From positions 1-8,704 of IMG/VR virus record IMGVR_UViG_2609460344_000011: a stretch of 8,704 bases of DNA. The stretch is one strand, 5' to 3'. Shown here piece after piece: positions 1-8,704 of the stretch. This stretch comes from a virus (Duplodnaviria; Heunggongvirae; Uroviricota; Caudoviricetes). The position numbers and the translations under genes are program-made. The notes beneath the pieces were generated by a model. The model saw only the letters and a list, made by a program, of their open reading frames with translations. It ran no database searches and had not been told where the DNA came from. Each line of letters opens with the position of its first letter. The stretch's first letter is position 1.

Positions 1-86
1 TTTCCACCCCTGTACGTCTCACCACCTATATGGTCGTGGAAAGCCTTGGTGGTGAGTTCATTGAATTCAACATAGGGGCTGTCACC

Positions 87-632
87 ATGACTACTCTCCC
101 AACCCAATCTCACCCTGAAATCACGATTATCAATGGTCGCGTTGTCACCACATCTCTTGCAGTAGCTAATTACTTTACTAAACGGCATGAGCGGGTTTTA
201 GATAGAATTAGAAACCTCGAATGTTCCGCTGAATTTACTGAACACAATTTTGTGTTAAGTGAATACACCGACGCATCAGGCCGCAAACTCCCTTGTTACC
301 AAATCACCCGCGACGGTTTTGCGTTTCTTGCCATGGGCTTCACTGGTAAACGTGCTGCCCGGTTCAAAGAGGCATACATAAATGCCTTTAACCAGATGGA
401 AAAACTGCTTTCAAAGCCATCCACGCTGAGCGATGCCGCAGATAACGCCAGCGTGCTTTACTCCCACCTGTCGGTAATCCACAAGGTCTGGCTGCAGCAG
501 CTTTATCCCATGTTGGCAAAAGCCGAATCCCCGCTGGCTGTAAGTCTGTATGACCGCATCAACGACGCGGCGCTACTGGCCAGTCTCATAAATTTGTCGC
601 TGAACCCTTCAGAGGTAAGGGGGCGTAAATGA
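87..632 (+). CDS. Rha-family phage regulatory protein (antirepressor-like)
   Basis: ATG at 87 preceded by GGGG (75-78). The ORF is open from 30, but the N-terminus MTTLPTQSHPEITIINGRVVTTSLAVANYFTKRHERVLDRIRN fits the Rha-domain pattern recalled from memory. Stop TGA 630-632 overlaps the next ATG. Confidence 0.65.
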   Translation: MTTLPTQSHPEITIINGRVVTTSLAVANYFTKRHERVLDRIRNLECSAEFTEHNFVLSEYTDASGRKLPCYQITRDGFAFLAMGFTGKRAARFKEAYINAFNQMEKLLSKPSTLSDAADNASVLYSHLSVIHKVWLQQLYPMLAKAESPLAVSLYDRINDAALLASLINLSLNPSEVRGRK

Positions 633-853
633 TCCGGAATATTTTCAAACGGTTTACCAATCATACTTTCTGTTGTCCTCGTCCGGGTCAGTGGTACACC
701 ACGCCTGCAGGGCATGTTCTACGTGTTAGCCTGGTTGACCGTGAATGTCAGAAGGTGATTTGTGAACCGCTGGGCCGTAATTACCGCGTCAGTATGCCGC
801 TTATAGCCTTTTGCTCCGGAAAAAACATGAAGCATCTCGGAGGTGCTGCATGA
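629..853 (+). CDS. hypothetical small protein (74 aa), translationally coupled between Rha and the O-like gene
   Basis: ATG 629 overlaps the upstream stop (ATGA). Purine-rich SD-like GAGGTAAGGGGG at 611-622. Its stop TGA 851-853 overlaps the next start at 850. No recognisable domain. Confidence 0.45.
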   Translation: MIRNIFKRFTNHTFCCPRPGQWYTTPAGHVLRVSLVDRECQKVICEPLGRNYRVSMPLIAFCSGKNMKHLGGAA

Positions 854-1668
854 GTATGGAGTTGATGGTTAAAGCGATGAAAATTCGAGTGGGAAATCCA
901 TTGCGAAAACTGGTTCTGATTAAGCTGGCTGATAATGCCAGCGATCAGGGTGAGTGCTGGCCCAGCTATCAGCATATCGCTGATCAGTGCGAGATTAGCA
1001 AACGTTCTGTGATGAATCATATTGCGGCCCTCTGTGAGTCCGGGCTGGTAAAAAAAGTCACCCGGAAAGGTGAAAAAGGTAACTCAAGTAATATCTATCT
1101 CCTTCATCTGGATGGTGCAGGAGATTCACTAGGGGGTAGTGCAAATAATTCACTATCTGGTGCAGCAAATTCACCAGGTAGTGCAGGAGTTGCACCAGGG
1201 GGTAGTGCAGGAGATTCACCCAGAACCAGTCACTCTTTTGAACCAGTCAAAGAACCAGTCAATGAACCAATAGCTGTTGGTGAATCTGCTGATGAGTCTG
1301 TGCGAGTTCGTTCAAACCGACCGGAATACTCTCCGGAGTTTGAGCAGGCATGGCTGGCATACCCCAAACGTGCTGGTGGCAATTCAAAATCTGCAGCCTT
1401 CAAAGCCTGGAAAGCCCGTTTGAATGAGGGGGTAAACCCCGAAACCATGCTGGAAGGTGTGAAACGCTACGCGGGCTGGGTATCTGCGATGGGTAACAGC
1501 GGCACACAATTTGTGAAACAGGCTGTCACGTTCTTTGGTCCGGATCGTCATTTCGAAGAATCCTGGGAAGTTCCTGCGGTATCTGCAGCCAGACGCGAGG
1601 ACCCGTACTTCAAAGCCAGTTACGACAACGTGGACTACAGCCAGATCCCGGAAGGATTCAGGGGGTGA
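850..1668 (+). CDS. lambdoid replication initiator O-like protein (N-terminal HTH domain, Gly/Ser/Ala linker, C-terminal domain)
   Basis: ATG 850 with GGAGG at 838-842. N-terminal segment LRKLVLIKLADNASDQGECWPSYQHIADQCEISKRSVMNHIAALCESGLV matches the helix-turn-helix typical of phage O-type replication protein N-termini. A low-complexity linker follows, encoded by iteron-like DNA repeats. Confidence 0.65.
   Translation: MSMELMVKAMKIRVGNPLRKLVLIKLADNASDQGECWPSYQHIADQCEISKRSVMNHIAALCESGLVKKVTRKGEKGNSSNIYLLHLDGAGDSLGGSANNSLSGAANSPGSAGVAPGGSAGDSPRTSHSFEPVKEPVNEPIAVGESADESVRVRSNRPEYSPEFEQAWLAYPKRAGGNSKSAAFKAWKARLNEGVNPETMLEGVKRYAGWVSAMGNSGTQFVKQAVTFFGPDRHFEESWEVPAVSAARREDPYFKASYDNVDYSQIPEGFRG
1111..1221. 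repeat. iteron-like direct repeats inside the O-like gene (candidate replication origin)
   Basis: GTGCAGGAGATTCAC occurs at 1115-1129 and 1205-1219. GGGGGTAGTGCA occurs at 1132-1143 and 1198-1209. ATTCAC recurs at 1124, 1148, 1169 and 1214, giving a roughly 21-24 bp period. Further degenerate copies (GGTAGTGCAGGAG at 1177) lie between. Confidence 0.4.
1240..1271. repeat. short tandem repeat GAACCAGTCAA x2 plus a partial copy, encoding EPVKEPVNEP
   Basis: GAACCAGTCAA at 1240-1250 and 1252-1262, then GAACCAA at 1265-1271, immediately 3' of the iteron-like block. Confidence 0.4.
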
Positions 1669-1670
1669 TC

Positions 1671-2159
1671 ATGAGTCTTTTGAATGAAGTTCAGAAATTC
1701 ATTGAAGCCCATCCGGGGTGTACTTCCGGAGACATTGCGGATGCTTTTGCAGGTTACTCACGGCAGCGCGTTCTGCAGTCAGCAAGCAAGTTACGTCAGA
1801 GTGGGCGTGTGGCTCACCGTTGTGAAGGAGATACACGCAGACATTTCCCGCGCCTGACTGAGAGAGCACAGGAGCCGGAACCACAACCAGTTCGTGAAAC
1901 CAGACCTGTGCGCAATTTCTGTGTCGGCACTAACGACCCGCAGGTGATTTTGTGCCTGACTCGCCAGGCGGAAGAACTGGAGTCCAGGGGCTTATTCCGT
2001 CGAGCTGCAACGGTGTGGATGGAGGCATTCCGTGAAAGCCACTCCCAGCCAGAACGAAACAATTTTCTGGCGCATCGTGAGCGGTGCTTACGGAAAAGCA
2101 GCAAGCGCGCTGCATCGGGTGAAGAGTGGTATCTGTCAGGGAATTACGTGGGGGCTTAA
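1671..2159 (+). CDS. PerC-like transcriptional regulator domain protein with N-terminal winged-helix-like region
   Basis: ATG 1671 with AGGGGG at 1659-1664; the upstream stop TGA 1666-1668 lies just before it. C-terminal segment ESRGLFRRAATVWMEAFRESHSQPERNNFLAHRERCLRK fits the recalled PerC/Pch signature (GLxRRAAxxW ... RRxxC). The N-terminal half looks like a small wHTH. Confidence 0.5.
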   Translation: MSLLNEVQKFIEAHPGCTSGDIADAFAGYSRQRVLQSASKLRQSGRVAHRCEGDTRRHFPRLTERAQEPEPQPVRETRPVRNFCVGTNDPQVILCLTRQAEELESRGLFRRAATVWMEAFRESHSQPERNNFLAHRERCLRKSSKRAASGEEWYLSGNYVGA

Positions 2160-2812
2160 TGAGTAATAAATATTGCCAGGCGCTGGTGGAGCTGCGGAAC
2201 AAACCAGCCCATGAACTGAAGGAAGTGGGCGATCAGTGGCGCACGCCGGACAACATTTTCTGGGGAATTAACACCCTGTTTGGCCCGTTTGTTCTGGATC
2301 TGTTCACTGATGGTGATAACGCCAAATGTGCCGCTTATTACACTGCGGAAGACAACGCGCTGGCGCATGACTGGTCTGAACGTCTTGCGGAGCTTAAAGG
2401 TGCTGCCTTTGGTAATCCCCCGTACAGCCGCGCCAGTCAGCATGAGGGGCAATACATCACCGGCATGCGTTACATCATGAAACATGCCAGTGCCATGCGT
2501 GATAAAGGCGGGCGCTATGTTTTCCTGATCAAAGCTGCCACCAGCGAAGTGTGGTGGCCGGAAGATGCAGATCATATTGCTTTTATTCGCGGGCGTATTG
2601 GTTTTGAACTGCCTGCCTGGTTTATCCCGAAAGACGAAAAGCAGGTGCCAACAGGTGCTTTCTTCGCTGGTGCTATTGCTGTTTTCGACAAGACCTGGAA
2701 GGGACCGGCAATCAGCTACATAGGGCGCGATGAACTTGAGGCATGTGGTGAGGCGTTTCTGGCGCAGGTTCGCCAGCAGGCGGAAAAACTGGTCAGGGAG
2801 ATGGCGGCATGA
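2159..2812 (+). CDS. phage Dam-family N6-adenine DNA methyltransferase
   Basis: ATG 2159 overlaps the upstream stop TAA 2157-2159, with a G-run at 2150-2154. Contains the GNPPY catalytic-type motif (N/DPPY class) and overall resemblance to phage N-6-adenine methyltransferases. Confidence 0.75.
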   Translation: MSNKYCQALVELRNKPAHELKEVGDQWRTPDNIFWGINTLFGPFVLDLFTDGDNAKCAAYYTAEDNALAHDWSERLAELKGAAFGNPPYSRASQHEGQYITGMRYIMKHASAMRDKGGRYVFLIKAATSEVWWPEDADHIAFIRGRIGFELPAWFIPKDEKQVPTGAFFAGAIAVFDKTWKGPAISYIGRDELEACGEAFLAQVRQQAEKLVREMAA

Positions 2813-3135
2813 CGACATTAACTCAATGCCAGCAGCAGGTGCTGGATATGCTGATTTCTTATCAGAAAGAACGTGGCTTCCCGCCAACCAATCAGGAGGT
2901 GGCAACCATGCTGGGATACCGTTCGGTGAATGCAGCGGTGGAGCATCTTCGCGCACTGGAGAAAAAAGGTGTCATCACGATAAAGCGTGGCGTGGCCCGG
3001 GGTATCACTCTTCATACCGCGGTGAAGGACGACGACAGCGAGGCGGTCGGGATTATCCGCGCCCTGCTTGCCGGTGAGGCAAACGCCAGGCTGCGTGCAG
3101 CCCACTGGTTACATGAGAGGGGCCTGAAAGTATGA
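2809..3135 (+). CDS. LexA N-terminal DNA-binding domain homologue lacking the S24 peptidase domain
   Basis: ATG 2809 overlaps the upstream stop (ATGA). Residues 1-68 align without gaps to the E. coli LexA N-terminal domain as recalled: LTxxQQxVxDxI ... GxPPTxxExAxxLGxRSxNAAxEHLxALxxKGVIxI ... RGIxL. The protein ends at 108 aa with no catalytic Ser/Lys domain. Confidence 0.75.
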   Translation: MTTLTQCQQQVLDMLISYQKERGFPPTNQEVATMLGYRSVNAAVEHLRALEKKGVITIKRGVARGITLHTAVKDDDSEAVGIIRALLAGEANARLRAAHWLHERGLKV

Positions 3136-3527
3136 AGCTAATACTGCCTTTTCCGCCCAGCGTGAACACGTACTGGCGACACCCCAACAAAGGGGCGTTT
3201 GCTGGTAAGAGCCTGATAAGCGCGGCGGGGCGAAAATTCCAGAGCGCGGCGTGTGCAGCAATAGTTGAGCAGTTACGTCGTCTGCCGAAACCAACGTCGG
3301 CACCTGCTTCAGTGGAGATCGTGTTGTTTCCTCCGGATAACCGGATCCGCGATCTGGACAACTATAACAAGGCGCTGTTTGACGCCCTGACCCACGCGGG
3401 TGTGTGGGAAGACGACAGTCAGGTGAAAAGAATGCTGGTGGAGTGGGGACCGGTTATCCCGGAGGGGAAGGTCGAGATCACTATCAGTAAGTACGAAAAA
3501 GCGAGTTGCAAATTAGCAACTCGGTAA
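3132..3527 (+). CDS. rusA: RusA-family Holliday junction resolvase (crossover junction endodeoxyribonuclease)
   Basis: ATG 3132 overlaps the upstream stop (ATGA), with GAGAGGGG upstream. N-terminal LILPFPPSVNTYWR and the acidic core DLDNYNKALFDALTHAGVWEDDSQV match RusA family signatures. Confidence 0.85.
   Translation: MKLILPFPPSVNTYWRHPNKGAFAGKSLISAAGRKFQSAACAAIVEQLRRLPKPTSAPASVEIVLFPPDNRIRDLDNYNKALFDALTHAGVWEDDSQVKRMLVEWGPVIPEGKVEITISKYEKASCKLATR
3502..3523. repeat. perfect 8-bp inverted repeat CGAGTTGC-N6-GCAACTCG at the 3' end of rusA
   Basis: CGAGTTGC (3502-3509) and GCAACTCG (3516-3523) are exact reverse complements. No U-tract follows, so it is more likely an operator or RNA stem than an intrinsic terminator. 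Confidence 0.35.
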
Positions 3528-3572
3528 CGGAATTGAGCAACACCCTAAATTTGGGTATTACCTCGTTAAAGA

Positions 3573-3592
3573 TACTGTATTTATGAACAGTG
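3573..3592. promoter_or_regulatory. LexA (SOS) box, consensus CTGT-N8-ACAG
   Basis: TACTGTATTTATGAACAGTG: CTGT at 3575-3578, an AT-rich 8-nt spacer, ACAG at 3587-3590. Candidate sigma70 elements TTGATA (3598-3603)-N17-TAAGTT (3621-3626) lie immediately downstream, before the KilA-N gene start at 3690. Confidence 0.7.
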
Positions 3593-3689
3593 TATCCTTG
3601 ATAACTATTAAAAATCGCAGTAAGTTCATCCTGCATCAACGAAAAGGGAGTGCAGTCCCGCTCGTGGATAAAAATTTGTGGAGAAACCA

Positions 3690-4505
3690 ATGAATCAGTT
3701 GCTTGTAATTGATGGCGTTTCTGTGCGTCAGTACTTCGAATCTAACTACTGTCTTAACGACCTTCAGAAAGCTGCTCTTCTTGCCGCTGGTGAGAATCGC
3801 TCCTCCCGTTCGCTGGAAGTTCACGAGTTTATGCGTCGTCCTGAAACGAAGGCTCTTGTGGAATTATTGGAAGAAGAAACTACGGGAGATTCCCGTAGTA
3901 TTCCTGTCATCACCATTCAGGGGCGCAATGGTGGGACGTATGTCTGTAAAGAGCTGGTCTATGCATATGCAATGTGGATCAGCCCGGCATTCAGCTTAAA
4001 AGTGATACGTACTTTTGATGCGCTTCATAATTCATCACCAGAAGAAACCACATCCGACAAAATTAAATCCGGGGTCATTCTGCTTGAATCAGCAGCAAAG
4101 ACTCTAAATCTGTCAAACTCCTCGAAACTTGGTGCATACCAGAAATTATCAAAGGTAGCTGGTCTTCCTGAACTTATGCCGATCTATGCCATTGATGCAC
4201 CTGCTGATGCGCCAGATGGTTCAAGCCGCCCTACGCTGTCGCTGAGTGCACTGCTGAAGCAGTATGGTATCCGCCTGACGGCTAATCAGGCATATCACCA
4301 GATGGCGAAGCTGGGGATCGTTGAACAACGCGAACGATACAGCCGTACCGCGATTAACAACATCAAAAAATTCTGGTCGCTGACCGCGAAAGGCTGCATG
4401 TTCGGCAAGAACATCACCAGTCCTGCAAATCCGCGCGAGACGCAGCCGCATTTCTTCGAATCCCGATTTCCTGAGCTGTTAAAGCTGCTCGATACCGTTC
4501 ATTGA
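3690..4505 (+). CDS. KilA-N domain protein, probable SOS-controlled antirepressor-like protein
   Basis: ATG 3690 with GGAG at 3680-3683. The N-terminal 110 aa (YCLNDLQKAALL ... IQGRNGGTYVCKELVYAYAMWISPAFSLKVIRTFDAL) fit the KilA-N domain pattern. Preceded by the LexA box. Confidence 0.7.
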   Translation: MNQLLVIDGVSVRQYFESNYCLNDLQKAALLAAGENRSSRSLEVHEFMRRPETKALVELLEEETTGDSRSIPVITIQGRNGGTYVCKELVYAYAMWISPAFSLKVIRTFDALHNSSPEETTSDKIKSGVILLESAAKTLNLSNSSKLGAYQKLSKVAGLPELMPIYAIDAPADAPDGSSRPTLSLSALLKQYGIRLTANQAYHQMAKLGIVEQRERYSRTAINNIKKFWSLTAKGCMFGKNITSPANPRETQPHFFESRFPELLKLLDTVH

Positions 4506-4506
4506 G

Positions 4507-5502
4507 GTGACTGTGAGAGCACTACTGACCCCTGAAATTGCCCCGCGTATGGGGATCGTATTGTTCAGGCCAGGTTCAGAGCTGATGCCCCTGTTTATGC
4601 AGGGGCGTGTCCTGCTGGAGCCTGAGCCGGAGCGTTATTCATCTTTCGCCAGTGGTGCCGTTCCGGCGGCATCACAACCGCTGGCGGATGATCCTGCCGT
4701 TCGGGCCGTGTTCCGCCATGAGGCAGTGATCCGTCGTGCTGGTGGCGTGGAATGTCTTGAAAGCTGGTTACTTCGTGAAAAAGGCTGCCAGTGGCCTCAT
4801 TCCGGATGGCACAGCGAGAACATGACCACAATGCGACACGCTCCGGGCGCAATCCGTCTGTGCTGGCACTGCGATAACCAGCTGCGCGATCAGTTCACGG
4901 AACGGCTGGAATCAATGGCAACGGATAACTGTGCCCGCTGGGTGTTGTCTGTTGTGCGTCGGGATCTCGGTTTTGATGACAGTCACGTTGTGACAATGCC
5001 GGAACTGTGCTGGTGGCTGATTCGTAATGACCTGGCGGATGCCTTACCGGAAAGTGCAGCCCGTAAGGCACTGAGATTACCGAAGCCTGTTGTGCCGTCT
5101 GTCACCCGGGAAAGTGACCTTGTGCCTTCGGTTCCTGCCACCAGCATCATCCAGGATAAAGCGAAAAAGGTGCTGGCGCTGAAAGTGGATCCGGAGTCGC
5201 CGGAGTCTTTTATGTTACGCCCCAAACGTCGCCGCTGGGTTAATGAAAAGTACACGCGCTGGGTTAAGACGCAGCCGTGTGCATGTTGTGGAAAGCCTGC
5301 TGATGATCCCCACCACCTGATAGGCCACGGTCAGGGGGGAATGGGTACAAAAGCGCATGACCTCTTCGTGCTGCCTTTGTGCAGAAAGCATCACGACGAG
5401 CTGCATGCGGATACCGTGGCATTTGAAGAGAAGTATGGCTCCCAGCTGGAGCTGATATTTCGTTTTATCGATCGTGCGCTGGCAATAGGCGTGCTGGCCT
5501 GA
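4507..5502 (+). CDS. DUF968-family protein with C-terminal HNH-like Cys/His motif
   Basis: C-terminal CACCGKPADDPHHLIGHGQGGMGTKAHDLFVLPLCRKHHDELH resembles the DUF968 family found next to Q in E. coli prophages. The start is uncertain: GTG 4507, GTG 4513 or ATG 4549, none with a strong SD. Confidence 0.6.
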   Translation: MTVRALLTPEIAPRMGIVLFRPGSELMPLFMQGRVLLEPEPERYSSFASGAVPAASQPLADDPAVRAVFRHEAVIRRAGGVECLESWLLREKGCQWPHSGWHSENMTTMRHAPGAIRLCWHCDNQLRDQFTERLESMATDNCARWVLSVVRRDLGFDDSHVVTMPELCWWLIRNDLADALPESAARKALRLPKPVVPSVTRESDLVPSVPATSIIQDKAKKVLALKVDPESPESFMLRPKRRRWVNEKYTRWVKTQPCACCGKPADDPHHLIGHGQGGMGTKAHDLFVLPLCRKHHDELHADTVAFEEKYGSQLELIFRFIDRALAIGVLA

Positions 5503-5519
5503 TTTTGTGGAGAAAGTTG

Positions 5520-5891
5520 ATGCGTGATATTCAAATGGTTCTTGAACGTTGGGGGGCATGGGTGGCAAATAATCACGAGGATGTGGAATGGTCATCTGTT
5601 GCTGCAGGTTTTAAGGGATTAATTCCTTCGAAAGTAAAATCCCGCCCGCAATGTAGCGATGACGATGGCCTGATCATTAGCTCTGCGATGACAGTTCTTA
5701 AGAAAAAGGAACCGTATCAATACGAATTACTGGAAATGTATTATGTGTATGGGGTTACATTACGGGTGTTGGGGGTAAAACTGGGGATATCACTTAATCA
5801 GGTTGTTATCAGACTGCAGAAAGCTGAAGGGTTTATTGACGGTTGTCTGGCAATGTTGGGGGTATCTTTAGAAATTGATTGTTACATATAG
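5520..5891 (+). CDS. Q-like late-gene antiterminator (small, about 123 aa, quuD-type)
   Basis: ATG 5520 with GGAGA at 5509-5513. The size, the position after rusA/DUF968 and before the tRNA cluster, and the N-terminal MRDIQMVLERWGAW match my recollection of small Q antiterminators of E. coli prophages. Family assignment is from memory, not a search. Confidence 0.55.
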   Translation: MRDIQMVLERWGAWVANNHEDVEWSSVAAGFKGLIPSKVKSRPQCSDDDGLIISSAMTVLKKKEPYQYELLEMYYVYGVTLRVLGVKLGISLNQVVIRLQKAEGFIDGCLAMLGVSLEIDCYI

Positions 5892-5930
5892 TAATAAATT
5901 CAATCAAAGTAAATAATCATATTTTATTAT

Positions 5931-5963
5931 AACCTCCTGATGATACCTGTTCATTGGGAGGTT
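5931..5963 (+). promoter_or_regulatory. inverted repeat AACCTCC-N19-GGAGGTT that can sequester the Shine-Dalgarno of the downstream gene
   Basis: AACCTCC (5931-5937) is the exact reverse complement of GGAGGTT (5957-5963). The right arm contains the SD (GGGAGG 5956-5961) of the ATG at 5967. Candidate -10 hexamers TATTAT/TATAAC at 5925-5933. Confidence 0.35.
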
Positions 5964-5966
5964 ATT

Positions 5967-6584
5967 ATGGATAAAAATGTAGAGCATGTATTAGTTGATG
6001 CAATTGAAAATAAGCAATCTTTAACAGTCGTTTACTTAGGAGGGAGCCAGCCCGGAACATTAAGGAATATTTCTCCGATTAGTATAAATGGGGATAAATT
6101 GCGGGCAAGATGCCATAGTTCTGGAGCAGTAAAGGTTTTCAATCTTGGGAAAATACAGTTACCCAGTGACTCCTGCGCGGTATCTATGCACTATGGAGAT
6201 TTAGAAGTTAAAGCTTATGAGACGATGCAGAGCGTAAATGACAACTTTCATGCCCTTTATCCTGAAGGACGATGGGGTGTTGATTTTAATGAGCATCGCT
6301 TTGCTTTATTTGATTTTTTTAAAAACGGGAAACGAAAAAAAACGGCATTTATGGCAATTGAGTTCAGGGAAAGAGATGAAGAGAAAATAATAACAGGTGT
6401 AACAATTGATATTGGTATATCTGGAACAGTGATTTCTGAGAAGTCCCGAATCCCAAAAAGACGACCATGGGTAGTGGTTGGTCCCGAACACGGAGAATAC
6501 AGTACTTATTCAACTTTGGACAAGGCTGCTACAGCGTTTTTTGAGAGGCTTTCGTTGATAGCATCCGGCCTGGAAGATAATTGA
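5967..6584 (+). CDS. hypothetical protein (205 aa), AT-rich accessory gene of unknown function
   Basis: ATG 5967 with a perfect GGGAGG SD at 5956-5961; an alternative ATG at 5940 has no SD. No family recognised. Markedly AT-rich relative to the upstream genes (by eye). Hand count: 11 of 12 Arg codons are AGA/AGG/CGA/CGG and 6 of 14 Ile codons are ATA. Confidence 0.6.
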   Translation: MDKNVEHVLVDAIENKQSLTVVYLGGSQPGTLRNISPISINGDKLRARCHSSGAVKVFNLGKIQLPSDSCAVSMHYGDLEVKAYETMQSVNDNFHALYPEGRWGVDFNEHRFALFDFFKNGKRKKTAFMAIEFRERDEEKIITGVTIDIGISGTVISEKSRIPKRRPWVVVGPEHGEYSTYSTLDKAATAFFERLSLIASGLEDN

Positions 6585-6716
6585 TTTTATGTTTGGTATT
6601 CAGAGTTCGCCGTGCTTAAGAAAGTCAAGATTCTAAAAATACTGAATGAGCTACTTGTGTTATAACAAAAATGCTATTAGTGTGTTAAGAGTGGTTACTT
6701 CGCCACACAACTTAAC

Positions 6717-6738
6717 CCCGCCACTGAGCGGGTTTTTT
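6717..6738 (+). terminator. intrinsic terminator
   Basis: Stem CCCGC (6717-6721) / GCGGG (6728-6732), loop CACTGA, followed by T6 (6733-6738). Confidence 0.6.
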
Positions 6739-6788
6739 GTACCTGTAAACTTGGTGCAGTACAGTAAACACGCTGGTGGTCGTGAATA

Positions 6789-6815
6789 CTGGCTTTTTAT
6801 CTTGCTGGCTTTTTA
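6789..6815. repeat. 11-bp perfect direct repeat CTGGCTTTTTA x2 (candidate regulator-binding site)
   Basis: CTGGCTTTTTA at 6789-6799 and 6805-6815, a 16-bp centre-to-centre spacing, about 50-75 bp upstream of the ATG at 6863. Confidence 0.35.
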
Positions 6816-6862
6816 GACAAGAGTTATTGGTATGTCACGTTAACCGGAAAGGGTAAAAAGAC

Positions 6863-7060
6863 ATGCTGAAACAGCAGGATATGACAGAAACCGCCAGAGT
6901 TGTGTTTGATGAATTAAGCGTTACCGAACCGGCGACAGTCGGGGAGATTGCGCAGAATACTTACCTTTCACGCGAACGCTGCCAGTTAATACTGACCCAG
7001 CTTGTTATGGCGGGTCTGGCAGACTATCAGTGCGGTTGTTACAGACGCCTTCAGTCCTGA
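6863..7060 (+). CDS. hypothetical small protein (65 aa), possible winged-helix (PapI/FaeA-like) DNA-binding protein
   Basis: ATG 6863 with a weak purine-rich stretch GGAAAGGG upstream. A helix-turn-helix-like segment ATVGEIAQNTYLSRERCQLILTQLVMAGL. Bracketed by intrinsic terminators. Assignment is tentative. Confidence 0.4.
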   Translation: MLKQQDMTETARVVFDELSVTEPATVGEIAQNTYLSRERCQLILTQLVMAGLADYQCGCYRRLQS

Positions 7061-7073
7061 AGGCTTTTTATTT
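7047..7073 (+). terminator. intrinsic terminator overlapping the stop codon of the 65-aa ORF
   Basis: Stem GCCTTCA (7047-7053) / TGAAGGC (7058-7064), loop GTCC, followed by TTTTTATTT (7065-7073). Confidence 0.55.
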
Positions 7074-7194
7074 GTGGTGAATGGGCGGCTGGTGGGGGGG
7101 CGACACCTGTCAGTCCTTTGCTTATGTGTTGATGATAATTTACCTTTTGGGGCTATAATTGAGCTAACCAATTGCTAATGAAAGTAAAATTATA

Positions 7195-7908
7195 ATGGCT
7201 GTTGTCTGTTCAGTTATCATGGTTTGCTCCCCAATTAATATTTTTCTTGAAAAGGATACGTTGTCACTTAAGCCAGGCTCAGTTGTTCTGGCCACCAAAT
7301 GCATCAGGGAGCTTTTCCTTATGCATTATGGCAAAGTTAAAATTGTCGATATAAGCGAATCCGTCGTAAGTCAATATCTGGAAAGTCAGCATAAGCTGAC
7401 GAGGACTCGTCTGACTGACATTCCGCTTTACCTGTTGCTGGAACCCAACAATCCTGCGTTGGCTGCGGCTTTAATTACCAGCCAGGGATTTTCCGGAGAG
7501 GCCACGGATATGTTTCTTATGATGGCCTGCCTGTCTCTGTTTGAAACAGATGAACGGATGTCATTGTTTTTAAGTGGATGTTTATCCAGCATAAGTGCCA
7601 AAGTCAGGGCGATAATTCAGACAGATATATCAGCAAGCTGGACGCTTGGTGCGATTGCTCTACAGTTGCATATGAGTGAGAGTTTGTTAAAGACAAAACT
7701 GAAAAATGAAGGGGGCATGTTCAGTCGCTTGTTGCTGGAAGAGCGGATGCGTGTTGCTGTAAATATGTTATGTTCCCGGCATGGATATGGACAGGCTATA
7801 GCAGAAAAATGCGGTTATTCAAGCAGGTCCTACTTTATTTCTGTATTTCACCGCTATTATGGCTTCCCGCCAGACAGATATGTATCCAGGCAAGGGCTTG
7901 ATTATTGA
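7195..7908 (+). CDS. AraC-family transcriptional regulator (AppY/GadX/YdeO/Rns-like)
   Basis: C-terminal AraC-type HTH (WTLGAIALQLHMSESLLKTKLKNEGGMFSRLLLEERMRVAVNMLCSRHGYGQAIAEKCGYSSRSYFISVFHRYYGFPP). N-terminus MAVVCSVIMVC resembles the AppY-like subgroup as recalled. AT-rich, with 5 AGG, 1 AGA and 5 ATA codons by hand count. No clear SD; an alternative start is ATG 7219. Confidence 0.7.
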   Translation: MAVVCSVIMVCSPINIFLEKDTLSLKPGSVVLATKCIRELFLMHYGKVKIVDISESVVSQYLESQHKLTRTRLTDIPLYLLLEPNNPALAAALITSQGFSGEATDMFLMMACLSLFETDERMSLFLSGCLSSISAKVRAIIQTDISASWTLGAIALQLHMSESLLKTKLKNEGGMFSRLLLEERMRVAVNMLCSRHGYGQAIAEKCGYSSRSYFISVFHRYYGFPPDRYVSRQGLDY

Positions 7909-7936
7909 TTTTCATCTGATTATTATTTTTTGGCTC

Positions 7937-8012
7937 GGCCCTTTAGCTCAGTGGTGAGAGCGAGCGACTCATAATCGCCAGGTCGCTGGTTCAAATCCAG
8001 CAAGGGCCACCA
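7937..8012 (+). tRNA. tRNA with anticodon CAU, most likely tRNA-Ile2 (lysidine, reads AUA); generic annotation would be tRNA-Met
   Basis: Hand-folded cloverleaf: acceptor GGCCCTT/AAGGGCC, D-arm GCTC/GAGC, anticodon loop CTCATAA, T-arm GCTGG/CCAGC with TTCAAAT loop, encoded CCA. Close to E. coli ileX as recalled. Confidence 0.8.
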
Positions 8013-8019
8013 TCACATA

Positions 8020-8096
8020 CCGCCATTAGCTCATCAGGAAAGAGCGCCAGCCTTCGAAGCTGGCTGCGCGGGGTTCAAGTCCCCGATGGCGGTCCA
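8020..8096 (+). tRNA. tRNA-Arg, anticodon UCG (reads CGA/CGG)
   Basis: Acceptor CCGCCAT/ATGGCGG, D-arm GCTC/GAGC, anticodon stem CCAGC/GCTGG with loop CTTCGAA, T-arm CGGGG/CCCCG with TTCAAGT loop, encoded CCA. The C1-G72 first pair is unusual but the fold is complete. Confidence 0.75.
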
Positions 8097-8109
8097 TTAT
8101 CTGCATCAT

Positions 8110-8186
8110 GCGTTGTTAGCTCAGCCGGACAGAGCAATTGCCTTCTAAGCAATCGGTCACTGGTTCGAATCCAGTACAACGCGCCA
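8110..8186 (+). tRNA. tRNA-Arg, anticodon UCU (reads AGA/AGG), argU-like
   Basis: Acceptor GCGTTGT/ACAACGC, D-arm GCTC/GAGC, anticodon stem ATTGC/GCAAT with loop CTTCTAA, T-arm ACTGG/CCAGT with TTCGAAT loop, encoded CCA. Confidence 0.8.
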
Positions 8187-8200
8187 CACTTATTTTCCCT

Positions 8201-8227
8201 GGCTCGCTTTTGCGGGCCTTTTTTTTT
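8201..8227 (+). terminator. intrinsic terminator downstream of the tRNA cluster
   Basis: Stem GGCTCGC (8201-8207) / GCGGGCC (8212-8218) with one G-U pair, loop TTTT, followed by T9 (8219-8227). Confidence 0.65.
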
Positions 8228-8439
8228 AAATGTCTCACAATTCAGGCGGTTGACTGTTGTCTGGTTTGCGGGGAGTTTGTTAAAAGAAACTGGCATGGTG
8301 AATCCCCCTGTGCGGAGGGGCAATCAGCAACTGGTGTTTTGTCACCGACCCTTATCCTTTCTGTGCGGGTTCAGGTGCTGATACTGAACTCACCGGGAGG
8401 CACCCGGCACCATGCAATGGCACATAGCGCCACTCTCCA

Positions 8440-8463
8440 GCCCCTCTCCGGAGGGGCTTTCTT
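8440..8463 (+). terminator. GC-rich hairpin with weak T-rich tail (possible attenuator or terminator)
   Basis: Stem GCCCCTC (8440-8446) / GAGGGGC (8451-8457), loop TCCG, followed by TTTCTT. Confidence 0.35.
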
Positions 8464-8469
8464 ATGGAC

Positions 8470-8497
8470 AAAAAAATCCCGCGCTGGGAGACGCGGG
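8470..8497 (-). terminator. candidate minus-strand intrinsic terminator
   Basis: Stem CCCGCG (8478-8483) / CGCGGG (8492-8497) with an 8-nt loop, preceded on the + strand by A7 (8470-8476). On the minus strand this reads hairpin then U7. Confidence 0.35.
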
Positions 8498-8691
8498 CGG
8501 CAAGGAATAAACAACAAAACGTGAAGTAATATTTCAGTTGGCGAATAATATCCGACAGTAATCACTCTGCGCAATAGCGCGGCCTTTTTCGTATTGCGGG
8601 CTGTTGTCTATCTTCTGCCATTATCCTGTAACTTCCGGACTTCAGCCCGCTCCTCATTTTACTCACAATATTATCCAGGCCGGGAGGATTC

Positions 8692-8704
8692 ATGGCATTT
8701 AAAC
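8692..8704 (+). CDS. 5' end of an unidentified gene running out of the window (begins MAFK)
   Basis: ATG 8692 preceded by GGGAGG at 8681-8686 with 5-nt spacing. Only 4 codons are visible. Confidence 0.3.

Follow-up and report, generated by a model that had tools for sequence, protein, structure and literature searches.

The window analysed here is the whole stretch of 8,704 nucleotides that makes up positions 1 to 8,704 of IMG/VR record IMGVR_UViG_2609460344_000011, from a virus of the class Caudoviricetes. It includes a gene for the late antiterminator Q, a 205-aa gene on the same strand (here the cargo gene) and, beyond that, a predicted late promoter, pR'. The gap between Q and the cargo gene holds an inverted repeat, one arm of which is the Shine-Dalgarno (SD) sequence of the cargo gene, and this predicted hairpin is the main subject of the analysis. 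The features of the region are:

5520-5891, plus strand: Q antiterminator gene, 123 aa, Q21/Q933W family (Pfam PF06530, E 1.3e-47)
5892-5966, plus strand: Q-to-cargo intergenic gap, 75 nt, 25% GC (whole window 49%), no terminator
5925-5930, plus strand: -10-like hexamer TATTAT, abutting and overlapping the left arm of the stem; candidate cargo promoter, weak, predicted start ~5937-5940
5929-5943, plus strand: left (5') arm of the RNA stem, including the anti-SD sequence AACCTCC (5931-5937); the lower stem extends to 5923
5944-5950, plus strand: loop UACCUGU, 7 nt
5951-5965, plus strand: right (3') arm of the RNA stem, including the SD sequence GGAGGTT (5957-5963); in the extended stem, pairing continues to 5971 and takes in the AUG
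5926-5953, minus strand: promoter-like TGAACA-16-TATAAT inside the hairpin, facing Q, 10/12 consensus matches
5967-6584, plus strand: cargo gene, 205 aa, starting at ATG 5967; stand-alone WYL-domain protein, C-terminal domain alpha/beta, no helix-turn-helix (HTH)
6655-6683, plus strand: predicted pR', with -35 TTGTGT (6655-6660), 17-nt spacer (6661-6677) and -10 TAGTGT (6678-6683); predicted start A6690
6684-6738, plus strand: pR' initial transcribed region GTTAAGAGTGGTTACTTCGCCACACAACTTAA and hairpin terminator, stem 6717-6732 and T-run 6733-6738 (+28 to +49)

A preliminary description of this DNA had noted a 75-bp AT-rich gap after Q with -10-like hexamers (TATTAT at 5925-5930 and TATAAC at 5928-5933), an exact 7-bp repeat (AACCTCC at 5931-5937 and GGAGGTT at 5957-5963) whose right arm is the SD sequence of the 205-aa gene, and a first terminator located past that gene. 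The sequence bears out the first two of these, and a terminator scan the third, placing the terminator at 6717-6732 with its T-run. The inverted repeat is bigger than 7 bp, as a repeat search gave 18-nt arms that are 83% complementary. In RNA form it makes a 15-bp stem (5929-5943 with 5951-5965) that contains two G·U pairs and carries a 7-nt loop. The stem starts 38 nt past the Q stop codon, and the anti-SD AACCUCC sits 20 nt upstream of the SD sequence.

The predicted fold is strong and is that of an RNA read in one direction. A 71-nt segment folds with a ΔG of -23.3 kcal/mol (z = -4.2), which none of 200 shuffled sequences equalled, and the arrangement AACCTCC-N10-40-GGAGGTT is expected 0.01 times per shuffled window. 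Folding gave -23.0 kcal/mol for the plus strand and -15.5 kcal/mol for the minus strand; the plus-strand stem is much the stronger because it has G·U pairs, and such an asymmetry is characteristic of an RNA element transcribed in the plus-strand direction. When folded in silico as a long transcript, both the SD sequence and the AUG are base-paired in a stable helix. The probability that the SD sequence is unpaired is ~1e-4, against a median of 0.41 for 598 distinct SD-bearing starts in lambdoid loci, among which it ranks first to second for sequestration despite the lowest GC content; the second lineage described below ranks fourth to sixth. The position of the transcript 5' end makes a large difference in silico, with the probability of an unpaired SD sequence being ~0.00 when the 5' end is at 5931 or further upstream and 0.36-0.54 when transcription begins at 5937-5940. 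Likewise, opening positions 5955-5972 costs 18.0 kcal/mol on long transcripts and 2.75 on a transcript starting at 5938. On these predictions, the inverted repeat is a plus-strand RNA element, a stem-loop of 15-21 bp that pairs the SD sequence with an anti-SD sequence.

Other identities for the structure were considered and rejected. It does not behave as an RNA thermometer, since the probability of an unpaired SD sequence in silico is ≤0.005 throughout 25-65 °C, nor is it an intrinsic terminator, as no U-run follows the stem (the sequence there is UAUGGAUAAAAAU) and the terminator scan reports none. No Rfam family was reached, the best matches scoring 18-22 bits against gathering thresholds of 42-100.

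To examine conservation, 66 copies of the junction were collected, representing nine distinct versions, and after leaving out one version disrupted by IS1 the remaining eight were folded. The stem is kept in all of the folded copies (65/65; eight distinct variants). In the version left out (L163, IMGVR_UViG_2563366940_000006), an end of IS1 (GGTGATGCTGCCAACTTACTGAT) lies inside the right arm just before the SD sequence, parting the cargo gene from its leader. The copies fall into two lineages. Within lineage 1 the window form is found in 26 copies, the T5928A variant (n=16) closes a U×U mismatch to give 21 continuous pairs and -26.9 kcal/mol in place of 15 bp with an interrupted lower stem, and T5955C (n=6) turns a G·U pair into G-C. 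The second lineage, at 72% protein identity, also keeps the hairpin. It differs from lineage 1 at five core-stem positions, four of which keep pairing through wobble-to-Watson-Crick changes, and its GTG-start variant (n=8) has a lower-stem C-G where lineage 1 has U-A, which is the sole double-sided change. Paired cells amounted to 93.9%, versus ≤56% in slid controls. Between the lineages, the gap upstream of the stem is 48% identical (11/23 positions) and the stem ~79%. Judged by these alignments, the hairpin has been conserved about as well as coding sequence, in contrast to the diverged remainder of the gap.

Homologs of the cargo protein at 30-37% identity, which come from Leucothrix, Vreelandella, Nitrincola and marine viral contigs and lie in other genomic contexts, are without such a hairpin, and their ribosome-binding sites are ordinary and accessible. 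The hairpin therefore tracks the genomic context downstream of Q rather than the protein family. Diverged Q-linked copies were sought in the protein database, in GTDB genomes and in IMG/VR, and only the two enterobacterial lineages and the hairpin-free distant homologs were found.

How the hairpin can be read depends on where the late promoter lies. The preliminary description had proposed that it is in the gap at 5892-5966, which would put the 205-aa gene within the constitutively transcribed pR' leader, or else that it is elsewhere and the hairpin gates translation. The first proposal is not supported. The pR' homologous to that of phage 933W is at 6655-6683, ~700 bases downstream, with no copy of its module in the gap. 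The 205-aa gene lies between Q and pR', upstream of the promoter, and is therefore outside both the pR' leader and Q control. Of the second proposal, the placing of the promoter elsewhere stands, and gating is supported in silico by the folding energy, the strand asymmetry, the conservation in lineage 2 and the absence from distant homologs.

The assignment of pR' rests first on Q itself, which matches the solved Q21 structures (PDB 6P18/6JNX, E 5.6e-10) and therefore belongs to the Q21/Q933W family. In the 933W record, the stretch labelled 'pR', qut, terminator' consists of TTTACG-16-TATCAT, then GATAAGAGTGGTTAC..., then CCCGCC...GCGGGTTTTTTT, and positions 6655-6738 of the window align with it base for base. 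A seven-way alignment of pR' sequences showed -11 A, -7 T and the A5 tract to be invariant, and the window spacer contains the palindrome GTTATAAC as well as the A5 tract. The module GTTAAGAGTGGTTAC occurs once in the window, at 6684-6698, and even when three mismatches are allowed there is no copy in the gap. From the gap to the first terminator-like site is ~780 nt with a 618-nt open reading frame (ORF) between, unlike the usual pR' pattern of a terminator tens to a few hundred nt away and no intervening gene. In Sp5 of strain Sakai, the distance from pR' to the terminator tR' determined by differential RNA sequencing (dRNA-seq) and Term-seq is 258 nt (PMC7547250). Starting from the A equivalent to the predicted start, the distance to the last U of the second terminator (tR') in Sp5 is exactly 258 nt, using an inferred coordinate offset between genome versions, and thus equals the published one. 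Accordingly, we predict that pR' of the window is at 6655-6683 and that transcription starts at A6690. The dominant published 3' end in Sp5 is at the second terminator, +258 (StxS RNA; PMC7547250). A second terminator-like site is present in the window at 6772-6793.

Scanning IMG/VR for the pR' block recovered at least 120 stretches, and patterns were then read from 127 copies of the block across all loci compared. The hexamer directly 5' of GTTAAGAGTGG is TAnnnT in all but one of 71 distinct versions of the module, the exception being CAGTAT in the 1720a-02 type, and the A5 tract is located 6 nt further upstream of this hexamer. The sequence between the -35 and the A tract falls into discrete types (ACGCGTACGC, GCGCGGTCCGC and TTTACGTACGT, with TGTGTTATAACA in the window and its sister lineage), and across loci each spacer type pairs with one type of Q C-terminal half. 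In the Q21/Q933W family, Q binds an element in the pR' spacer, between -35 and -10, and the initial transcribed region includes a -10-like pause element (PMC6606751; 10.1101/651190). Co-variation of the spacer with the C-terminal half of Q is as expected for a Q-binding element in that position. Each spacer type, read at 6659-6677 in the window and across loci L001-L133, is partly palindromic: GTTATAAC in the window, ACGCGT/CGTACG and GCGG-T-CCGC elsewhere. From their sequences, the spacer types are candidate Q-binding elements of Q21-family subtypes not studied before.

The window thus shares with the cassette of 933W and Sp5, in which Q is followed by pR' with its Q-binding and pause elements (QBE/SDPE) and by tR', a Q of the Q21 family and a homologous promoter, initial transcribed region and terminator at 6655-6738. 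Its spacer, TGTGTTATAACAAAAA, is unlike that of 933W and the other types, and the C-terminal half of its Q differs correspondingly. The cassette is not at the coordinates of the hairpin, which belongs instead to cargo inserted between Q and pR'.

That the space between Q and pR' is a variable slot is evident from the other loci. The Q stop codon and the pR' block are 26 nt to ~3 kb apart, with direct cases at 26-43 nt. In 1720a-02, TGTTAAGAGTGGTTACTTCGCCACACA...TTAA follows ~37 nt after Q and is itself followed by a hairpin terminator, and in PhiR40_1 an unrelated minus-strand gene separates Q from the same block (6683-6738 in the window). The inserts range from 0 to ~3 kb, have 31-40% GC and carry mostly minus-strand genes (loci L014-L133). 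Examples include an OmpC-like porin (lc/nmpC-like) in L015 (5435-7118) and, elsewhere, one to three ORFs of no known function. Several of the multi-gene inserts look like defence candidates; a literature search for defence hot spots near Q returned nothing specific. Prophage morons and accessory hot spots are familiar, e.g. the lc/nmpC porin between Q and the lysis genes, and the window likewise has a low-GC accessory gene in the variable Q-pR' slot. However, most other cargo is on the opposite strand, whereas that of the window is co-oriented with Q and carries a predicted translational silencer. GC content drops from ~0.55 to 0.34-0.41 from ~5700, in the middle of Q, onward through the cargo gene. 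A single low-GC block (~5700-6683) includes the C-terminal half of Q, the WYL cargo gene and the -35 and spacer of pR'. Q ends in three consecutive in-frame stop codons, TAG TAA TAA (5889-5897).

The WYL gene is a co-oriented cargo gene, or moron, inserted in the slot between Q and pR', and the question is how it would be expressed. The terminator scan found no terminator-like site between Q and the cargo gene (5892-5966), and both are on the same early-right strand. Early-right transcripts that pass through Q would therefore include both the cargo message and the anti-SD arm. On such read-through transcripts the ribosome-binding site would be closed, at a predicted opening cost of ~18 kcal/mol, and the message would be translationally silent, so that the hairpin would uncouple translation of the cargo gene from early and lytic transcription of the phage. 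We infer that both the read-through from Q and the silencing occur in vivo. The most likely route to translation would be a weak sigma-70 promoter with its -10 at 5925-5930, at the foot of the left arm. Transcripts starting at ~5937-5940 would lack the anti-SD sequence and have an open SD sequence. The pR' terminator or terminators would set the 3' end of every cargo transcript.

The candidate promoter, ATCAAA-16-TATTAT, scores 5.8 bits with a position weight matrix (PWM) and ranks 125 of the 86,690 window positions scored; it is the best plus-strand candidate with a useful start. Its hexamer (5925-5930), TATTAT in the window form, becomes TATAAT in T5928A (16/66 copies), which lifts the candidate to 8.0 bits (rank 28); lineage 2 has TACAGT at this position. 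TAnnnT is thus present in both lineages, with an ordinary PWM score and a -35 that is not conserved. The best plus-strand promoter match in the gap, ATGATA-17-TATTAT (5940-5968), would start transcription at ~5975, inside the ORF, and is therefore useless for the 205-aa gene. Two further candidates were also discarded. The heptamer TTATAAC, common to the gap and the pR' spacer, was considered as a second Q site, but it is lost in T5928A and absent in lineage 2. ATG 5940 was considered as the cargo start (giving 214 aa), but the homologs align from 5967, and in lineage 2 the upstream ATG, located 28 nt from the start, is in a different frame.

An arrangement of this kind has been described in phage T4. 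For genes e (lysozyme), soc, 49 and I-TevI, the long transcripts that read through from upstream are not translated, and the translatable mRNA comes from a promoter within the 5' strand of the structure (PMC3014915). As in those genes, long transcripts arriving from upstream genes are predicted here to hold the SD sequence and start codon in a stable helix, the 5' arm has a promoter-like hexamer in or at it so that shorter transcripts would lack the inhibitory strand, and the gene is an 'extra' one, not meant to follow the expression schedule of its upstream neighbour. The differences are that the window belongs to a temperate lambdoid prophage, that the promoter is a candidate weak sigma-70 promoter rather than a T4 late promoter (TATAAATA), with a putative internal start, and that the logic would split lysogenic from lytic expression rather than early from late. 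Both SD-sequestering hairpins and cargo at this phage junction are already known kinds of feature.

The explanation as a whole, in which an SD-hiding hairpin silences read-through from Q and an internal promoter gives relief, is one that we hold with moderate confidence on the evidence of the sequences. Translational silencing of the read-through transcripts is its supported core. An internal promoter is the most likely relief route, though that step taken by itself is tentative. More specific, and correspondingly more speculative, is the proposal that the hairpin works together with the hexamer at its base as a promoter-dependent translational switch, with Q read-through silent and transcripts from the gene's own promoter translated, such that the WYL protein is made in lysogens and not from lytic read-through.

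Several observations count against this explanation. The proposed internal promoter is weak and its -35 differs between the lineages (AATCAA vs ATGAAC), and five promoter-like sites in 5400-7300, versus 4.6 ± 1.8 in shuffled sequences, is the level expected by chance. The polymorphisms that improve the -10 improve the stem too and therefore cannot separate selection for a promoter from selection for the stem. Within lineage 1, the change G5961A (n=3) costs the stem one pair and leaves a weaker SD sequence, and one core-stem position of lineage 2 also breaks a pair. Covariation is thin, amounting to two lineages, seven distinct sequences and one double-sided change, and the shuffle control for it was uninformative (327/500).

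Among the other explanations, a permanent attenuator without relief, which would hold a possibly harmful WYL protein at a very low level from any transcript, survives best but is unlikely. It would fit the tendency of independent variants to strengthen sequestration (T5928A, T5955C and the lineage 2 GTG start), the decay of some copies (by frameshift, IS1 or ISVsa5) and the lack of a good promoter detectable in the region. However, a stem that costs ~18 kcal/mol to open would allow hardly any protein synthesis, and despite this most of the 74 genomes with the junction, among 5,426 of Escherichia coli, retain an intact and conserved ORF.

Somewhat less likely again is that the stem is a site for RNase III or other double-strand-specific processing, or a stability element. 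It might then part Q from the cargo message, protect the 3' end of the Q mRNA or, through cleavage, switch the cargo ribosome-binding site, and the lambda N leader is a precedent for RNase III cleavage acting on a ribosome-binding site. The 15-21 contiguous bp, near two helical turns in T5928A, and the position of the stem 38 nt past the Q stop codon would suit such a role. An RNase III substrate would need ~20 bp or more of nearly unbroken duplex, a length that the T5928A variant reaches with its 21 bp, whereas the window form has 15 bp and an interrupted lower stem. But a stability hairpin need not consist of an SD sequence and its exact complement, and cleavage in the stem would cut within or beside the SD sequence. 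The stem is also absent in the distant homologs, though every context-dependent model expects that.

We consider it improbable that the repeat acts as DNA, either as an operator for a dimeric regulator or as a minus-strand promoter (5953 to 5926) for an anti-Q RNA like lambda paQ. The minus-strand site is the best consensus match in the region (10/12), and the TAnnnT hexamer and a TGAAC -35 are also found in lineage 2, where the counterpart is TGAACG-16-TACTGT. Against this, the two G·U positions become A·C mismatches when the opposite strand is read and break the palindrome as DNA, the substitutions mostly keep plus-strand RNA pairing, a promoter does not require an inverted repeat, and arms 7-19 nt apart would be unusual for an operator. 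The minus-strand site may be a chance by-product of an AT-rich palindrome. If active, it would drive antisense RNA into the 3' end of Q, an arrangement reminiscent of lambda paQ. T5928A shifts the perfect TATAAT from the minus strand to the plus strand.

That the complementarity has no function and arose from AT-rich sequence and cassette assembly is very improbable; only two lineages are available and the covariation statistics are weak, but the arrangement has a chance expectation of 0.01 per window, ranks at the top of 598 SD contexts, and is conserved at coding-sequence level next to a gap at 48% identity. Finally, though -10-like hexamers do occur in the gap (5925-5933) and the gene does precede the first terminator, it is scarcely credible that the gap holds pR' and that the 205-aa gene sits in a constitutive leader, given a pR' homologous to those of 933W and Sp5 at 6655-6683 with its initial transcribed region and terminator at +28 to +49, a module that is unique in the window and not in the gap, relatives that have the module 26-43 nt after Q or past unrelated cargo of 0.6-3 kb, and a downstream promoter whose spacer co-varies with the Q C-terminal type (cf. 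PMC6606751).

The product of the cargo gene has a WYL-like N-terminal domain. Its WYL match in Pfam is weak (E 0.0085, with a score of 16.5 that is below the gathering score of 21.8), and the PADLOC defence-system models gave only weak WYL matches (WYL E 0.0014). An AlphaFold model (pLDDT 74) has one helix followed by a WYL Sm/SH3-like beta-barrel, the WYL domain beginning at about residue 8. The conserved C-terminal domain includes an RPWVV motif. No HTH domain was matched in the Pfam search and none is present in the structure model; hence, at only 205 aa, the protein is without the N-terminal winged-HTH DNA-binding domain of the WYL regulators DriD, CapW, BrxR and PafBC. It is rare, being represented by only nine clusters among 5.8 billion proteins, and is absent from the INPHARED phage genomes.

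In 5,426 complete E. coli genomes the Q-cargo junction was found 74 times, with 52 copies like the window and 22 at ~78% DNA identity, and in all of the genomes with this Q subtype (74/74) the cargo gene follows Q, most of them retaining an intact and conserved ORF. The carriers include E. coli S88 (NC_011742) and MS7163 (NZ_CP026853). The WYL protein may conceivably be linked in function to this Q/pR' subtype, and the association may equally reflect a single ancestral insertion. Some lineage 2 copies are damaged, namely L010-L012, in which a frameshift leaves a 144-aa product, and L136, which is truncated by the IS4-like element ISVsa5. Damaged copies suggest that the gene is dispensable or counter-selected in some hosts.

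Beyond pR', phage SfV (L002, 2370-2520) has a lambda-type Q with its own pR' (TTGCAT-17-TAAGAT, with an AACGATGGG pause motif), followed by the same terminator and downstream genes as the window. On this comparison, the terminator and the start of the late region are common to different Q families, with Q and its promoter swapped as a unit. A further promoter-like site, TTGTAC-17-TACAGT, has one of the highest scores of the window at 9.7 bits. It occupies 6737-6765, immediately past the pR' terminator and upstream of a 65-aa TrmB-like ORF (6863-7060), and its sequence is conserved in many related loci. The late region also includes a gene for a 237-aa AraC-family regulator (7195-7908; HTH_AraC E 2.4e-13; phrog_1450). 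This gene has a strong promoter-like site of its own at 7129-7159 (TATAAT), just before which is a terminator-like site of the upstream gene (7047-7064). In related phages a DNA methyltransferase takes its place, and it is probably a second cargo gene.

These findings correct the map of the late control region, with pR' and a short leader of ~49 nt at 6655-6738 and the WYL gene outside Q control. They also identify the Q-pR' junction of Q21/Q933W-type phages, which is related to the late-promoter site of the Shiga toxin phages, as a slot that accepts very different cargo. The WYL protein, rare, stand-alone and uncharacterised, is related to the domains of defence regulators that sense single-stranded DNA, and may bear on phage defence or counter-defence. 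If the proposed explanation is true, a cargo gene co-oriented with the phage operon would be insulated from the operon's transcription at the level of translation. The arrangement would then be a temperate-phage counterpart of the design of T4 gene e and would offer a general escape route for same-strand morons.

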